A DNA stretch of 64,000 nucleotides from Fistulifera solaris. Its lineage: Eukaryota. The stretch covers positions 1,240,001-1,304,000 of the forward strand of contig AP026130.1 in assembly GCA_030295235.1 (NCBI GenBank), in the 5' to 3' direction. The position numbers and the translations under genes were made by a program. This document shows positions 43,873 through 50,831 of the stretch, piece after piece. The number at the start of each line of letters is the position of its first letter. Position 1 is the first letter of the stretch. The notes beneath the pieces were generated by a model that worked only from the letters and a program-made list of their open reading frames with translations, was not told the DNA's origin and searched no databases.

Positions 43873-45617
43873 ATGATACGTTTTTCACTTCTATTCCTTT
43901 CACTGAGCTTTCAAGATGTCTTCAGTTTTACTGCTACTAGTAGAAAGGGAGGATTTCCGCTTTTGCGATCGCAAGTAGATGATCATACAACGACGACAAA
44001 AAGACAACGACAATCAACGAAAATGAAGGCGGTCGTTACGATAAACTGCTGAAAGAACTCAATCTAGACCTTCCTGCGCTTGCGAAACTGCCAAAGAAGC
44101 ATACGATCACCCCCTTTGATGTCTTTTGCAACCGCGAGTTGAAATTAGAAGGCATTCAGGCGATTGGGTTTGACATGGATTACACGTTAGCACAATACAA
44201 CGAAACAACATTCGCTGAACTCGCTTTCGATGGTGCAAAACGAAAGCTTGTCGAAAGTCTCGGTTATCCCGAAGAAGTGTTGGATTTTACGTACGATCCG
44301 GCACACTGGGTGCGGGGGTTGATCATTGATACACAGCGCGGTAACTTTCTAAAAATCGATCGTCACAAGTACGTGCGAGTGGCTCGCCACGGCTTTGAAG
44401 TCATTTCCAGTACAACACGAAAGCATCTTTACTCGCGGCAATTTAACAAGGTCATGAGTTTTACGGAAAAACAGTTTGTGAACATGGATACTTTGTTTCA
44501 ATTTGTCGACGCGCACCTCTTTGCGAGTCTCATTGAGATGAAAGACAAGGGCGATTACGAAGAACTGGACTACAAAACATACGAAGAAATCTACCGTCAA
44601 GTACGAGAATGTGTCGATTTATGCCATCGCGATGGAGTCATTAAAGATCAAGTCCATTTGAATCCAGAGCCGTACGTCATTTTCGACAAGGGCATGGTCC
44701 CTATGTTACGGCGGTTCCGCCAGGAAGGAATTAAGCTGTTTTTGTTGACAAACTCCTTGTGGGAATATACTTCAACTGTAATGAACTTTCTGTATCATGG
44801 AGAGCGTGTCTCGGACGAACGTCAGAAGGAAAACGAGTGGATGGAATTATTTGATTTGGTCATTACAGGTGCGTGCAAGCCGGCGTATATGGTCGACTCG
44901 CACCTCAATCTATTTCGCGTCGATCCTTCGACTGGTACACTGAGAAACACCGATGGTGTGTACGAGATTGAAGCGCTTGGTCCAAATGGGGCTACAAAGT
45001 TTCTACAAAAGGGCAAGACTTTCCAGGGCGGTAATTGGTTGCACCTGCAGGCTATGTTGGAAATTGAAGCCGGAGAGGAGATTTTGTATGTTGGGGATCA
45101 CTTGTATTCCGATGTACTCCGTAGCAAGCGAACTTTGGGATGGCGCTCTGCTTTCATTATGCCAGAGCTCGAAGACGAAATGAAAACATTTGCGGCGAAT
45201 GCACCCTTGGCTAGGCAAATCATTGAATTGCGCAAGCTTCGTGAGGAACTTGGAGTATTGGGTGAAGCCCTGCGTCGTCAAGCAGACAACCCACAGAAGG
45301 AGCAGGAATTGAATCATTTAATTGATCAAGACAATGTTTTAAAGGAAAAACTGATTGAGATGACGAGCCGCTGGCACGCCGCATTCCATCCTATTTGGGG
45401 TGCTATGTTTCATGCGGGATACCAAGATTCGCGATTTGCGTTTTACGTACAAAACTATGCGTGTGTGTACACAAGTCGCGCAAGCAATTTGGGTTTATGG
45501 TCGAAGCAGCGTTCCTTCCGAACTTCTATGGAGATGTTGTCGCACGATCGCCTTTTGTTCGCTACAGATCATACAGATTTTTCTGAAGTTGATCCTTGGG
45601 CAGATATTGCAGAATAA
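43873..45617 (+). CDS. HAD-superfamily 5'-nucleotidase (NT5C2/NT5DC type), probably plastid-targeted
   Basis: VFCNREL, GFDMDYTLAQY, LLTNS, GDHLYSD; N-terminal signal-like MIRFSLLFL...VFSF separated by a 1-nt loss in an A-run at ~44000. Confidence 0.9.
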
Positions 45618-46505
45618 AGTAAATAACTTTAAAGACAATCCATAAACCGTTTCTTTGCGCATCATAAGTTTTTGGCGTTCAGCTATAACGAGACTATTTG
45701 ATGGTTTCTCTTTTAAAGTTCGGTACCTCGCACCCCCATAACAGTGTAGCTACTCGATTGACCCGCAAGGACGATCATTGCTGAATATAGTCTTTGGAAG
45801 GATCACTACGATGGACGTCAAATCCTCCTAGGTAGTTTACTTAGCTTTACTATGGGCCACAGTATTGTTCGTTTTTGTCAATGACTGGATTTTCAGTCAT
45901 GAGTCATTTCCGTTCGCGAACACGGCGTGAAGAATGAACAATGACTCTCCTGCCCGTTCTCTCTGTTCTTTATGACCATACTTGGATAGTTTGTGTACAT
46001 GACGTTGGATGACACTTAGCAAAGAATAGACGAGACTACTCGTTCCTTGACTCGTTAGACTATAGTAATGTGGTTTTCTGTAACAGTGCGACCTAGATCA
46101 ATGGCCCCATTTCAGAGGTCGTATTTTACACTTAGGCTGTCCGAAAGGTGTGTGGTTTTCGACTTTCGATTTCTGGCGCTTGATTTCGGCTGAGTGCCGC
46201 TTGTTGTACTTTCTTGTGTACATAAGTGCATTATTTTTTGTCGTTCGTCATCGAACATCGGCTGGCGTGCCACTCCCTCCCTCCACCTCCTTCCACTCCA
46301 CCAAAAAAGAGCAACAACCACCTCCATCGTCCGCCACAGCAATCTTGAAATTTTCATCACCTCAATCGTCACAACGAAACGACCCGAATACTTTCCAGAG
46401 AGCGAGCGCCAATTTGCCTCCTTTCAGGTCTTTTCTTCTTTCTTCCCTTCTCGCTGTTCAGGTCTTCTTCCCTAGCAGCGCAGTATTAGTGAAGGAGCAT
46501 TGTGA

Positions 46506-46668
46506 ATGCTTGTAAGTAGCGCGCAAATGCATTTACTAAAGTTGATAGTTGCTAATTAGTCAACGGCTCGCTCACCTTTGTGTTCTATATTAGCCCGTAC
46601 CAATTGTGGTTTTCTTCGTTCCTTTCCTCTTGGCAGTTCCCGGTCCTGCCAAGGCTTACCCTAGCTAG
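46506..46668 (+). promoter_or_regulatory. Spliced upstream ORF (26 aa, MLPVPIVVFFVPFLLAVPGPAKAYPS*) in the AdoMetDC leader
   Basis: ATG CTT at 46506-46511, GTAAGT donor 46512, CTCAC branch-like site, TAG acceptor 46593, CCT AGC TAG at 46660-46668. Confidence 0.6.
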
Positions 46669-46683
46669 CAGCGCTTAATTAAG

Positions 46684-47999
46684 ATGGCTTTTACCGAAGA
46701 AACGCACTCGACCTCTTCGAGTGATAACGAAGTCCCAGCGACTGTGGGGGCACTGCTACTCATTTTCATCCTGCTGTTCCGGAAGATGATAACGATTCGG
46801 GTCAAGAACGTGATTACACGGGCATGTTTGAAGGCCCGGAAAAGACTCTCGAAGTTGTCTTTCGTCGCGTCAGTGATGAATACACGGATGCGAGTACGGG
46901 TGATTTGACTCCGATGCAGACGCCTCCTAACACCAAGCTAGGTCTTCGCAACTTGACGCGTGAGCAACTCGATCGCATCTGTGCTCGAGCTCGTTGCACG
47001 ATCCTCTCTTGCATCTCCAATCAGTATTTGGATGCCTATGTCTTGAGTGAGTCGTCGCTCTTTGTGTATCCCTACATGCTGGTCCTCAAGACGTGCGGAA
47101 CTACGACTTTGTTGCGATGCATCGCCACTCTCATTGACTTGGGACGTACTTTGGGATTGGAGATTGATTGGGTTGGTTACAGTCGCAAGAACTTTAACTT
47201 TCCTGGAGATCAGTCCTTTCCTCATCAGTCCTTTCATCAGGAGTTGGACTATCTCTACTCGCATCGCAATCTCTGTGAGCGCTTGGACGGATCTGGCTAC
47301 ACGCTGGGTCCTGTTACAGGAGATCATTGGTTTGTCTTTGTGGCAGATCAGACGCTTCGCTCGAAAGCGCTGGACTGTGACACCGACCGCGTCTTGAACA
47401 TCATGATGTTCGATATCGATGAACAGGTTGCAGAGCTCTTTTACTACAACCGTTACCAAGAGTCGGATGATGAGCCCATTGCTGAGAATGACATGAAGCG
47501 CATTGCTGCCGCGCAGACGAAGGCTGCGGGTATTGACAGTCTTTGCCCTGGTGCACTCATCGACAGTGCGGCCTTTGAGCCTTGCGGATACTCGATGAAC
47601 GCTGTTCTATTCCGTTCCTACAGCACGATGCATATCACTCCTGAGACTGGATCGTCTTACGCGTCCTTTGAAACGAACCAAAAGGTCAGTTCGTACAAGA
47701 GTCTTATCAGTAATGTGATTCGTACCTTCCGTCCGAAGCGTTTTGTAATGACGCTCATGGCGGATGAAGGTGGATTGCAGCAGATTACAGAGAATCCTTT
47801 GACCGATAACGCTTCGGCGGCAAAGATTGTAGTGCCCTTTGAGAAGAGTGGTATGAAGTGCAGCTACAAGCGTGCGAGCACGGCGTCGATTAAGGTCGAG
47901 GAAGACTGTTGCTGCTTGATGGGAAATTGGGTTCTTGAGGAGCCTTCCAAGCAATCCTATTCGGCGACTCAGCGAGCTCGTGGTATTTCGATTTCGTGA
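46684..47999 (+). CDS. AMD1: S-adenosylmethionine decarboxylase proenzyme (eukaryotic type)
   Basis: FEGPEK.LEV, YVLSESSLF (pyruvoyl cleavage site), LKTCGTT, FEPCGYSMN, HITPE; start either 46824 or 46684 with a frame correction near 46730. Confidence 0.95.
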
Positions 48000-48389
48000 A
48001 AGGAAATGTGTTTGTCAACTGAATGCGAGATAAAGAGAAACACGTCCAGGTATTGAGTTTCTGCATTCTGGAAAAATTAACATTAGTAAAAAAGTTGTGT
48101 CATGTGACTGACTCCTGTCAGACTAGCTATGCAATTATTTGTTTCCTTTACACTGCAAGTCTTCTTCTGCATTCAAGCCTTGAAGTTTACAAATGCATCG
48201 CTGTTGCAATGCGAACGGGCCTTAAAGAAACTGACATCGGAAGGGACTGACACCGGTCGTGTATCAATAAAGAATGCCACTGTTTGCAAGAGGGTTCGCA
48301 AAAATGCGAACTTGTCAAATAAATTGCAGTCGCAATTCTCCACGAAAAAAGTTGGGCATAGCTCATAAAACATCAAAAGAAATGATAAA

Positions 48390-50831
48390 ATGATCCGCTT
48401 ACTAATTTTTATAATCCTTCTGCCAACTATAACAATTGCAGGAGACCATCCTAAAACCTGTGCTGCCCAACTTGATACGTACCGGAACTGCCTCACCGCA
48501 AATGCCAATCATTGCTCTCCGTTGTGTGCCGGAGTTCACGTGGTTCTCAATCCACAAGTTTTAGCAACGATGACGGAGGCTGGTCAAACCGTCGCTTGTG
48601 ATGCTATGAAACTGATGAGCTGTTCGTATCAAAGCTGGTGCTGCGAGAATCGAGAGGGACAGAAAACAGCCTGCGTCACCGAGGAGCAATCGTATTGGCA
48701 GTGCATAGAACAAGAAGCTGGATGTGGCCCCATTGATTGCGAAGCCGTGCTTGAACCTTCGGAACCTCAAGAACCCGAGGAGACCGAGGAAACAGAGCCA
48801 CCAGTTATTCCACCCGATACAGACCCTGAAGAGGACGACGAAGAAGAGACAAAACCACCTCGCCCTTCCAACGATACTCCTCGAACCTGTGCTGCTGAAC
48901 TCAAAACGTATCAGAAATGCGTCGTCTCCAATCCGTCCAAGTGCCGCGCCGCGTGCAGAGACGTCGATGTCATTCTTAACCCAAACCTATTGGCGACTAT
49001 GGAGAATCCTGCTAGGGCATGCTATGCATTGAACCTGAAGAGTTGTAAATTCCAGGAGTGGTGCTGCAAGAGCCCTGAAGGTGTTGCAACAGCCTGCGAA
49101 AATGAACAAAATGCTTACTGGCAGTGCATAGAACAAGAAGCTGGTTGCGGTGCGTTTACATGCGAAATTGAGATCCCACCTCCTGACGATGATGGTACTG
49201 CTCCACCGATCGAGCCGGAACCCGAACCTACTCAGCCCGTGGATGAAAACGATGGAGAAGATCCCCTGACGCCTCAAGACGATGAAGAAGACGAAGAAAC
49301 GAACAATCCCAACAACAGGCCCAGAACATGCGCTGCGCAACTTGATACGTACCGGAACTGCCTCACCGCAAATGCCAATCATTGCTCTCCGTTGTGTGCC
49401 GGAGTTCACGTGGTTCTCAATCCACAAGTTTTAGCAACGATGACGGAGGCTGGTCAAACCGTCGCTTGTGATGCTATGAAACTGATGAGCTGTTCGTATC
49501 AAAGCTGGTGCTGCGAGAATCGAGAGGGACAGAAAACAGCCTGCGTCACCGAGGAGCAATCGTATTGGCAGTGCATAGAACAAGAAGCTGGATGTGGCCC
49601 CATTGATTGCGAAGCCGTGCTTGAACCTTCGGAACCTCAAGAACCCGAGGAGACCGAGGAAACAGAGCCACCAGTTATTCCACCCGATACAGACCCTGAA
49701 GAGGACGACGAAGAAGAGACAAAACCACCTCGCCCTTCCAACGATACTCCTCGAACCTGTGCTGCTGAACTCAAAACGTATCAGAAATGCGTCGTCTCCA
49801 ATCCGTCCAAGTGCCGCGCCGCGTGCAGAGACGTCGATGTCATTCTTAACCCAAACCTATTGGCGACTATGGAGAATCCTGCTAGGGCATGCTATGCATT
49901 GAACCTGAAGAGTTGTAAATTCCAGGAGTGGTGCTGCAAGAGCCCTGAAGGTGTTGCAACAGCCTGCGAAAATGAACAAAACGCATACTGGCAGTGCATA
50001 GAACAAGAAGCTGGTTGCGGTGCACTGACTTGCGAGACTGCTTCTGGCTCAACTTCCGAGGTTGCAACCTCGACGAGCGTCACTGCAAGAGCCACCAAAC
50101 GGCCCAGAACATGCCCTACGCAGCTACAGGCATACCAGCAATGCGTCTTTGCAAATCCGAAATATTGTTTTCCTTCGTGTGCTAAGGTGGACGTGATTAT
50201 CAACCCGCGCATGTTAGCTGAAATGTTAAGCCCGACGAGAGCTTGCGCCGCCATGAAAACTATGAGCTGCGGATATCAATTATCGGCTTGTTGCAAGAAT
50301 CATAAAGGCGTGGAAGTGGCTTGTGGCGCTCAAAAACGTGCTTACTGGCGCTGCATTGAACAAAAGGCCGGCTGTGGTGCTATTGATTGTAAGAAACTGA
50401 ATTTGCCTCGTATTAGCACGAGCTCGACGCCAATGGCCACAATGATTGAGAAGACGAAGCTGCGAAAGAAGTCTGCACGCGTTCCACAGAAAGAAACTTG
50501 CAAAGCCGAACTTGAAACTATGCAGGAATGCGAAGTGGCCAAAAACTGCAGTCGGGACTGTGGCGAGACAGTGGTGGAAGATAACTCCTATGAACCAATC
50601 CTAAACCTTTGTTGGATGCAAGGTTGCTGCGAAAGATGCGAAACCGAGCAAACAGGTTACCTTCAATGTCTTGAACGTCAAACAGAATGTTCTCTTGATT
50701 GCAGAATGAATCTGGACGAGCTCGAAGAAAGCGAAGAATACGAAGCGGCTGGCGACGCTGCTCCTTCTTTGGCACGGAGCTTCCAGGGAGTATTTACTTT
50801 GTGCTTGGCTGCATTTGTATTGCTTCAATGA
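48390..50831 (+). CDS. Secreted, probably GPI-anchored Cys-rich repeat protein (five 12-Cys domains plus one degenerate, Pro/Glu/Asp linkers)
   Basis: Signal peptide, repeated TCAA.L.TY..C...CC...C..E...YWQC.EQEAGCG...C, hydrophobic C-terminus. Confidence 0.88.
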   Translation: MIRLLIFIILLPTITIAGDHPKTCAAQLDTYRNCLTANANHCSPLCAGVHVVLNPQVLATMTEAGQTVACDAMKLMSCSYQSWCCENREGQKTACVTEEQSYWQCIEQEAGCGPIDCEAVLEPSEPQEPEETEETEPPVIPPDTDPEEDDEEETKPPRPSNDTPRTCAAELKTYQKCVVSNPSKCRAACRDVDVILNPNLLATMENPARACYALNLKSCKFQEWCCKSPEGVATACENEQNAYWQCIEQEAGCGAFTCEIEIPPPDDDGTAPPIEPEPEPTQPVDENDGEDPLTPQDDEEDEETNNPNNRPRTCAAQLDTYRNCLTANANHCSPLCAGVHVVLNPQVLATMTEAGQTVACDAMKLMSCSYQSWCCENREGQKTACVTEEQSYWQCIEQEAGCGPIDCEAVLEPSEPQEPEETEETEPPVIPPDTDPEEDDEEETKPPRPSNDTPRTCAAELKTYQKCVVSNPSKCRAACRDVDVILNPNLLATMENPARACYALNLKSCKFQEWCCKSPEGVATACENEQNAYWQCIEQEAGCGALTCETASGSTSEVATSTSVTARATKRPRTCPTQLQAYQQCVFANPKYCFPSCAKVDVIINPRMLAEMLSPTRACAAMKTMSCGYQLSACCKNHKGVEVACGAQKRAYWRCIEQKAGCGAIDCKKLNLPRISTSSTPMATMIEKTKLRKKSARVPQKETCKAELETMQECEVAKNCSRDCGETVVEDNSYEPILNLCWMQGCCERCETEQTGYLQCLERQTECSLDCRMNLDELEESEEYEAAGDAAPSLARSFQGVFTLCLAAFVLLQ
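48468..50023 (+). repeat. Intragenic ~690-bp near-identical duplication (offset 870 bp)
   Basis: 48468-49153 vs 49338-50023; only two synonymous differences seen near the 3' end. Confidence 0.92.

Follow-up and report, generated by a model that had tools for sequence, protein, structure and literature searches.

The AdoMetDC gene of the diatom Fistulifera solaris raises the question of whether its mRNA carries a short upstream open reading frame (uORF) whose start codon is split off by an intron, and whether this uORF may work as a polyamine-sensing translational switch. AdoMetDC commits S-adenosylmethionine to polyamine synthesis, and diatoms, which are major primary producers, build long-chain polyamines for their silica walls. 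The uORF of Arabidopsis AdoMetDC1 reportedly shows polyamine-responsive arrest at its stop. An initial annotation, made from the letters of the sequence, had proposed such a uORF with a Pro-Ser-stop ending in a 64,000-nucleotide stretch of the F. solaris contig AP026130.1. This whole stretch is called the window, and all positions are given in it.

The host gene is a eukaryote-type AdoMetDC of F. solaris. The ORF opened by the ATG at 46824 matched Pfam PF01536 (SAM_decarbox, 2.4e-93), and the best database relative was P0001, a F. solaris protein of 438 aa with 99% identity. In the window as given, the ATG at 46684 opens just 74 codons, out of frame with the enzyme domain (from about 46824). 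All contigs that cover the G run at 46746-46750 (sequencing runs X1, X2 and X3) have one extra base at 46745-46748, which is G in X2 and T in X1 and X3, and P0001 starts at the methionine of 46684 and reads straight into the enzyme. The frame-restoring contigs together with P0001 therefore identify 46684 as the true start and reveal a one-base deficit of the window, due to an assembly error or to an allele. The initial annotation was right in taking 46684 as the main start, but it overlooked that, in the window's own letters, this start does not share the frame of the enzyme. Other diatom AdoMetDCs contain a comparable acidic or serine-rich N-terminal extension, which ends in a conserved Tyr-Thr/Ser-Gly before Phe-Glu-Gly-Pro-Glu-Lys.

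By frame reading, the spliced uORF has 26 codons, with Met-Leu encoded in exon 1 and the other 24 codons in exon 2 (Table 1). The core of the peptide is hydrophobic and its last residues are Ala-Lys-Ala-Tyr-Pro-Ser; Tyr-Pro-Ser and a TAG (46666-46668) close the frame 15 nt before the main ATG (AAGATGG). The intron starts with GTAAGT and ends with TATTAG. Without splicing, the ATG of exon 1 opens an unrelated 17-codon frame, and use of an alternative acceptor AG ending at 46636 leads to a 15-codon product. Re-reading of the sequence returned the same values as the initial annotation for the ATGCTT of exon 1, the intron length, the Pro-Ser-TAG ending and the distance to AAGATGG, and also for the alternative acceptor and its product. 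As the uORF is spliced, it is hidden from ORF finders, and the main ORF is broken by the one-base deficit, so annotation pipelines will mis-call both.

Table 1. Features of the AdoMetDC locus of Fistulifera solaris, in window coordinates.
Feature	Position	Strand	Evidence
Upstream stretch (5' leader or promoter), AUG-free	46104..46505	+	Transcript contigs reach at least 46428
uORF exon 1: ATG and one codon (Met-Leu), weak context TGAATGC	46506..46511	+	Sequence; context conserved
Intron, GT..AG, 82 nt, after uORF codon 2	46512..46593	+	Joint 46511 to 46594, runs X2 and X5
uORF exon 2: 24 codons and TAG	46594..46668	+	Profile E=1.5e-10; pN/pS 0.32
Candidate hairpin within uORF	46628..46654	+	MFE fold; pair counts; synonymous-recoding z
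Post-stop context CAG-CGC-TTA, C right after stop	46669..46677	+	Family consensus CAG-CCC-TTA
AdoMetDC main ORF, 438 codons counting the missing base	46684..47999	+	PF01536; P0001; contigs
Poly(A) addition site of AdoMetDC mRNA	48107..48107	+	Loose ends of 24 A and 17 A, X2 and X3

Logan contigs of four runs (X1, X2, X3 and X5) were compared with the region 45700-48300. The joint from 46511 to 46594, which has GT..AG ends and skips 82 nt, was found in contig 9 of X2 (46444-46511 joined to 46594-46789) and in contig 23 of X5 (46428-46511 joined to 46594-46731). These two runs belong to two studies, and the junction proposed by the initial annotation is thus present in RNA from both. Poly(A) loose ends (24 and 17 A) were found behind 48107 in X2 and X3, which indicates that the contigs derive from transcripts. 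It follows from the spliced contigs of X2 and X5 that the uORF is part of the mature mRNA in its spliced form and that transcription starts upstream of the uATG, not downstream of it; the contigs reach 46444 and 46428, and the true 5' end of the transcript is something that contigs cannot reveal. The uORF is present in the mature AdoMetDC mRNA, real and expressed. No joint to the alternative acceptor (46637) was listed in the contigs of the four runs, from which rare isoforms are dropped.

Two alleles or homeologues of F. solaris are expressed, the homeologous copy being seen through the run contigs, and their sole difference in the uORF is a synonymous GGT/GGA at 46644. One X3 contig of a divergent allele joins 46470 to 46575 with CT..AC ends, a joint that would remove the uATG.

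For comparison with other diatoms, 80 metagenome and metatranscriptome loci were retrieved with an alignment of 14 diatom AdoMetDCs. Many of them are mRNA-like contigs of 1.5-2.5 kb, hence with leaders already spliced. Listing the uORFs upstream of the predicted main ATGs revealed a recurrent peptide of 25-31 codons. A first profile, composed of 17 peptides selected through a pattern of residue classes and without the window, matched the exon-2 segment of the window at E=1.5e-10 and found 36 loci at E<0.01, while the reverse strand of the same leaders gave nothing below 0.049. The iterated profile matched 41 of the 79 loci examined (one of the retrieved loci, L072, has no N-terminus), and its best reverse-strand match had E=0.13. 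All matches are located upstream of AdoMetDC, with a gap between uORF stop and main AUG of 15-338 nt (15 nt in F. solaris and 21-338 nt in the relatives).

The other 38 of the 79 loci had no match. About 14 of these have a leader shorter than 150 nt, and some have long upstream sequence, e.g. L013, L037 and L053; a search of the full upstream sequence of all 38 found no further copies. Three loci (L012, L020 and L032) contain uORFs of like size and position that scored below the threshold (E=0.72 for L012) and look like divergent relatives. The five most distant loci (L070, L071, L075, L078 and L079, 45-52% identity) showed no uORF match and are probably not diatoms. As the peptide is conserved across diatoms, the uORF is more than a chance frame: it is a conserved-peptide uORF (CPuORF), member of a family spread over diatoms. 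The homologous uORF that had been anticipated in the AdoMetDC leaders of other diatoms was thus found in 41 of the 80 retrieved loci, with no match on the reverse strand.

Purifying selection acts on the peptide. In the last 21 codons of 34 distinct sequences, the information at codon positions 1, 2 and 3 was 0.51, 0.94 and 0.32 bits, and the mean falls to 0.14 bits at 16-40 nt past the stop. The pooled pN/pS of 11 non-overlapping pairs was 0.32 in frame versus 1.92 and 1.33 in the shifted frames, which bears out the synonymous-biased change predicted for diatom leaders. The proline codon varies synonymously (CCT 17, CCC 5, CCA 4). The last serine codon is AGC in the window and TCC or TCT in 32 other sequences, so the serine residue is kept and its bases are not; TCC occurs in 29/34. 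The nucleotide-level conservation of this TCC, of the stop context and of a hairpin shows that part of the constraint lies on the RNA rather than on the peptide.

The same intron position, in which ATG-CNN is followed by GT[AG][AC]GT and an in-frame acceptor restores 25-31 codons, was found in 12 other distinct loci. Direct proof of splicing came from L008, a spliced contig that equals the genomic contig L009 minus exactly 481 nt after ATG-CCT. Six long contigs (L026, L027, L045, L058, L060 and L080) contain the uORF uninterrupted, and we therefore consider the intron to be old and lost in some lineages. It showed no sign of a function of its own.

The peptide ends in Pro-Ser in 26 of the 34 distinct cores, and the final serine is found in 33 of them. 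The endings were placed on a quick tree of the enzymes, constructed with the window, L072 and eleven rows with ORFs <250 aa left out. Pro-Ser endings occur in every major branch of the tree, deep branches included: in the raphid-pennate group (Fistulifera, Amphora, Epithemia), in the Attheya-linked group and in the Trieres/Minutocellus group. The Nitzschia-like clade ends in Phe-(Val/Phe/Ile)-Ser and the Seminavis-like clade in Ser-Ile-Ser, Phe-Val-Ser or Ser-Val-Ile. In one decayed lineage, L050 ends in TYQ and its relative L052 gave no match. With Pro-Ser in every major branch and two clades deviating, Pro-Ser-stop looks ancestral and replaced twice; these replacements and the decayed lineage also indicate that the proline is not strictly required. 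The expectation that the Pro-Ser-stop ending is conserved therefore holds in so far as it is the commonest and phylogenetically widest ending, but it is not universal.

The stop signal is also constrained. The uORF stop is TGA in 24 and TAG in ten of the 34 distinct sequences, and TAA in none. The base right after the stop (+4) is C in 34/34, and the consensus of +4 to +9 is CAG-CCC-TT(A), with 2.0, 1.4, 0.2, 0.95, 0.9 and 0.7 bits at the successive positions versus the low mean given above for +16 to +40. A pyrimidine, above all C, after the stop is the weakest termination context in eukaryotes.

At the other end of the uORF, the start context is weak. The base at -3 of the uATG, which is T in the window, is T in 27, C in five, G in two and A in none of the 34 distinct sequences, so that the weak context noted in the initial annotation is a family trait, and C stands at +4 in 33/34. 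At the main start codons of these loci, -3 is A in 27/34. No other ATG was found in 16 of 17 mRNA-like leaders, where about 0.015 per nt is predicted from composition. In the window, no ATG was found on the plus strand between 46101 and 46506; the only other ATG near the uORF start, at 46527, is intronic, and the mature leader is without a second uAUG. Such a single leaky uORF in an otherwise AUG-free leader is the pattern that would be expected of a scanning-dependent switch.

Within the uORF, a candidate hairpin was found, with a stem of 8-9 bp (CUUGGCAG / CUGCCAAG) and a 9-nt loop; in the MFE fold of the window, 46629-36 pairs with 46646-53, and 12-13 nt separate the end of the 3' arm from the stop codon. 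The pairing codons are Leu-Ala, usually CUUGGC, and Ala-Lys, 4-5 codons further on and usually GCCAAG. In the 34-sequence alignment 74% of cells pair, compared with 67% in column shuffles (none of 500 was as high) and no more than 47% with the 3' partner slid, and both-sided changes were found in 6/8 hairpin pairs, counts in which a structure derived from the same sequences is favoured. In an independent comparison, synonymous codons sampled from the usage of the main ORFs replaced those of each uORF segment. The real uORF folded better than its synonymous recodings in 36/37 distinct loci (mean z -1.64), and the mean z of 106 main-ORF control segments was -0.26. The 3' end of the stem is located 10-15 nt before the stop in 21/37 loci. 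By footprint geometry, this is roughly where the rear of a ribosome would lie when the stop occupies its A site.

RNAalifold returned no consensus structure for the 34-sequence alignment, and the hairpin claim therefore rests on the pair counts and the synonymous-recoding z-scores. The fold of exon 2 and the start region in the window was unexceptional (z -0.46). An Rfam scan of 46100-46900 found no known RNA family, with a chance-level snR100 match only (15 bits versus a gathering threshold of 80, E=0.42). We tentatively regard the hairpin, which is more stable than coding for the peptide would demand, as an extra layer inside the uORF.

The idea of a diatom AdoMetDC uORF is already in print since 2010. 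The available text of Ivanov, Atkins and Michael (2010, Nucleic Acids Res 38:353; PMC2811004) names diatoms among the organisms whose AdoMetDC mRNAs have uORFs and ascribes a penultimate proline to all these uORFs apart from those of vertebrates and sea squirts. The AdoMetDC 5' leader, the diatom hosts and the penultimate proline are common to those uORFs and ours, and as far as that text goes the F. solaris uORF almost certainly represents this element in a further species. The diatom uORFs occupy one sentence in the available part of PMC2811004, and the splicing, stop context, uAUG and hairpin are detailed here. We found no other treatment of diatom AdoMetDC uORFs in the full-text literature searched. 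What is apparently new is that an intron splits the uORF close to its start, that the stop is never UAA and is always followed by C, that the uAUG is kept weak, that the uORF holds a candidate hairpin and that some clades lost the proline.

Compared with the class of penultimate-proline AdoMetDC uORFs, the diatom uORF has the same leader position, the presence in mature mRNA, the penultimate proline and the conserved peptide. The small uORF of plant AdoMetDC is described in the available text of PMC2811004 as sequence-dependent, inhibitory, conserved to its stop, polyamine-responsive and with a penultimate proline. The diatom uORF resembles this plant leader family (PF08132) in its position in the AdoMetDC leader, in the penultimate proline and in conservation up to the stop. 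It differs in length, 25-31 codons (26 here) against 48-55 in plants, and in arrangement: the plant small uORF is overlapped by a tiny uORF of 2-3 codons, whereas the diatom leader, having no other AUG, has none. The plant model is thus a choice between two uAUGs, while bypass in diatoms would likely occur by leaky scanning past one weak uAUG. A Pfam search at E<=10 with the exon-2 peptide of the window and seven relatives gave no match, PF08132 (AdoMetDC_leader) included. As sequence similarity to the plant leader family is absent, the analogy rests on position and ending only.

In yeast, the polyamine-pathway mRNA of HOL1 is repressed through the Pro-Ser-stop of its uORF, where polyamines interfere with termination that depends on eIF5A, as summarised in the available text of PMC10855120 (citing Vindu 2021). 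The diatom uORF shares this ending in the majority of cores, but the HOL1 uORF has six codons and precedes a transporter, whereas the diatom uORF of 26 codons precedes AdoMetDC. The conservation of the diatom peptide over about 20 residues implies tunnel contacts beyond the last two residues, unlike HOL1. The mammalian AMD1 uORF is the site of a termination-linked, peptide-dependent and polyamine-modulated stall in the AdoMetDC leader (PMC2811004, available text). It encodes a hexapeptide that ends in Ile-Ser-stop, contains no proline and lies 14 nt from the cap; its sequence has no relation to the diatom peptide. The proline-less diatom clades resemble it in ending with hydrophobic-Ser-stop, including Ile-Ser-stop. 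The F. solaris uORF is different from a MAGDIS-type hexapeptide near the cap, having 26 codons and at least 78 nt of transcript upstream of the uATG. By analogy, we infer that the diatom uORF works like the plant, mammalian and HOL1 uORFs but outside their sequence families.

Considering these features, we propose that the uORF is a cis-acting CPuORF which would lower AdoMetDC translation by a polyamine-enhanced stall of the ribosome at its stop, a reading to which we assign a probability of about 0.65. Some 43S complexes would initiate at the sole uAUG in its weak context, and the rest would leak to the AdoMetDC AUG. A ribosome translating the uORF would reach Pro-Ser-stop in an inefficient context (UAG or UGA followed by C, never UAA) and terminate slowly, with the nascent peptide of about 25-30 residues filling the exit tunnel and Pro-Ser in the E and P positions. 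If the analogy to yeast HOL1 and to the AdoMetDC uORFs of plants and mammals holds, high polyamines may slow termination further, through the peptide and through inhibited eIF5A-assisted termination. The parked ribosome, here 15 nt from the main AUG, would block scanning, and AdoMetDC synthesis would fall. Once the ribosome sits on the stop codon, the hairpin may re-form just behind it and make the stall more stable or shield it. A literature search found no ribosome-profiling, reporter or polyamine data on uORFs in any diatom.

The same features could belong to a constitutive damper or an mRNA-decay trigger that acts at a fixed rate and senses no metabolite. The weak uAUG, the single uORF and the slow stop context fit a fixed attenuator equally well, yet a fixed damper needs no conserved peptide, and about 20 codons up to the stop are under purifying selection. 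Every characterised AdoMetDC uORF is moreover polyamine-responsive in the available text of PMC2811004, and we consider this explanation unlikely.

Alternatively, the same stall device could respond to another ligand, such as SAM, decarboxylated SAM, thermospermine or long-chain polyamines, and not to spermidine or spermine. Diatoms make unusual polyamines, and their peptide shows no relation to its plant, fungal and animal counterparts. The available text of PMC13582744 refers to thermospermine synthase activity of the ACL5 type in Thalassiosira. However, the sequence indicates no particular ligand, and Pro-Ser-stop is linked elsewhere to polyamine/eIF5A control (PMC10855120, available text), which makes a different ligand quite unlikely.

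The locus could also be primarily an RNA element, in which the hairpin and the stop surroundings form a scanning barrier or a protein-binding site and the reading frame is secondary. The advantage of the hairpin over synonymous recodings, set beside the near-zero control mean, agrees with this, as do the preferred TCC serine codon and the conserved +4 to +9 positions. Against it stand the low pN/pS in frame with values above 1 in the other frames, the synonymous variation of the proline codon, the AGC of the window that keeps serine but not the bases, and the retention of start codon and frame across the intron in the 12 other loci. Together with the RNAalifold result and the modest z of the window leader fold, these points make a primary RNA element very unlikely.

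A trans-acting hydrophobic micropeptide, or an N-terminal extension of AdoMetDC made by read-through, is the least probable of all: the peptide core is hydrophobic, the bases behind the stop are reminiscent of read-through contexts and the window uORF is in frame with the main ATG (46666 and 46684 are 18 nt apart, with one TAG and five codons between), but the gap is a multiple of 3 in just 7/37 distinct cases, below the chance third, and the uORF accompanies AdoMetDC in every case, keeps its conservation to the very stop in the manner of arrest peptides, and has two to three prolines in a stretch too short for a membrane helix. The fusion to AdoMetDC by read-through was rejected, as this frame relation is not conserved.

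Returning to the polyamine-enhanced stall, we might further speculate that the uORF is a composite arrest module, with a Pro-Ser peptide of about 25-30 residues, a weak stop signal, a trailing-edge hairpin and a weak uAUG set apart by an old intron, and that it could be an independently evolved sensor of its own. The parts are each conserved, UGA/UAG-C with +4 to +9 and the 3' arm of the hairpin about 11-15 nt before the stop, and we hold this extension to be possible, on balance doubtful. No polyamine-sensing uORF is known to unite a peptide, a stop context and a trailing-edge hairpin in this way.

A uORF of probable arrest type, deeply conserved on the AdoMetDC mRNA, provides a testable handle on the control of polyamine flux in diatoms. 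It also provides an independent natural experiment on how nascent peptide, stop context and eIF5A/polyamines cooperate at termination, and its natural variants may serve as ready mutants: Pro-Ser versus hydrophobic-Ser endings, AGC versus TCC serine codons, and intron-containing versus intron-less genes. If the composite module is true, it would be diatoms' own sensor, in organisms that are heavy users of decarboxylated SAM.

The AdoMetDC gene is broken in two in the window as given: one frame of 74 codons starts at 46684, and a second of 391 codons starts at 46824. The G run at 46746-46750 counts five G in the window, one base fewer than in all covering transcript or DNA contigs from the sequencing runs X1, X2 and X3, and the F. 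solaris protein at NCBI likewise implies one more base at this run. The missing base is probably a homopolymer assembly error; a frameshift allele is the possible alternative.

The F. solaris uORF and the main ORF share one frame, with the TAG and five codons between them (46666-46686), so that read-through of the stop would fuse both. This shared frame is not conserved, being found in 7 of 37 relatives. There is also a short direct repeat: the leader copy CCCTAGCAGCGC (46470-46481) reappears as CCCTAGCTAGCAGCGC (46659-46674), spanning the Pro-Ser-stop of the uORF and the post-stop context, and the extra CTAG of the second copy contains the unusual AGC serine codon of the window.

One X3 contig (aligned to 46416-46575, with 29 unmatched letters before 46416) represents a divergent allele with 16 differences, and joins 46470 straight to 46575. 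The 104 nt skipped have CT..AC ends. Such a form would be without the uATG, yet retain the final 19 nt of the intron; the joint may be an isoform, a homeologue indel or an assembly artefact.

The upstream neighbouring gene has 480 codons and no introns. The downstream protein is made up of long, nearly exact internal repeats, and its sole Pfam signal is a weak, sub-threshold match to CX9C (E 4e-5, 23.8 bits vs a cut-off of 26.4).

Genes neighbouring AdoMetDC in the window
Feature	Position	Strand	Product
Upstream neighbour	44175-45617	+	Member of the cytosolic 5'-nucleotidase family (PF05761, E 1e-136)
Downstream neighbour	48390-50831	+	813-codon, cysteine-rich, secreted-looking protein

Among the AdoMetDC loci retrieved from metagenomes and metatranscriptomes, the uORF of L050 (141-233) retains the core and ends in Thr-Tyr-Gln-TAG, and no uORF copy was detectable in the 183 nt of leader of its close relative L052; the uORF looks decayed in this lineage. 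The Pro-Ser-stop is replaced by hydrophobic-Ser-stop in the Nitzschia-like clade (L005, L007, L021) and likewise in the Seminavis-like clade (L008-L011, L015, L019), except for L015, which has Ser-Val-Ile-stop. Both clades retain the remaining peptide, the TCC-TGA-C ending and the leader position, and their endings provide natural variants for asking whether the proline is required.
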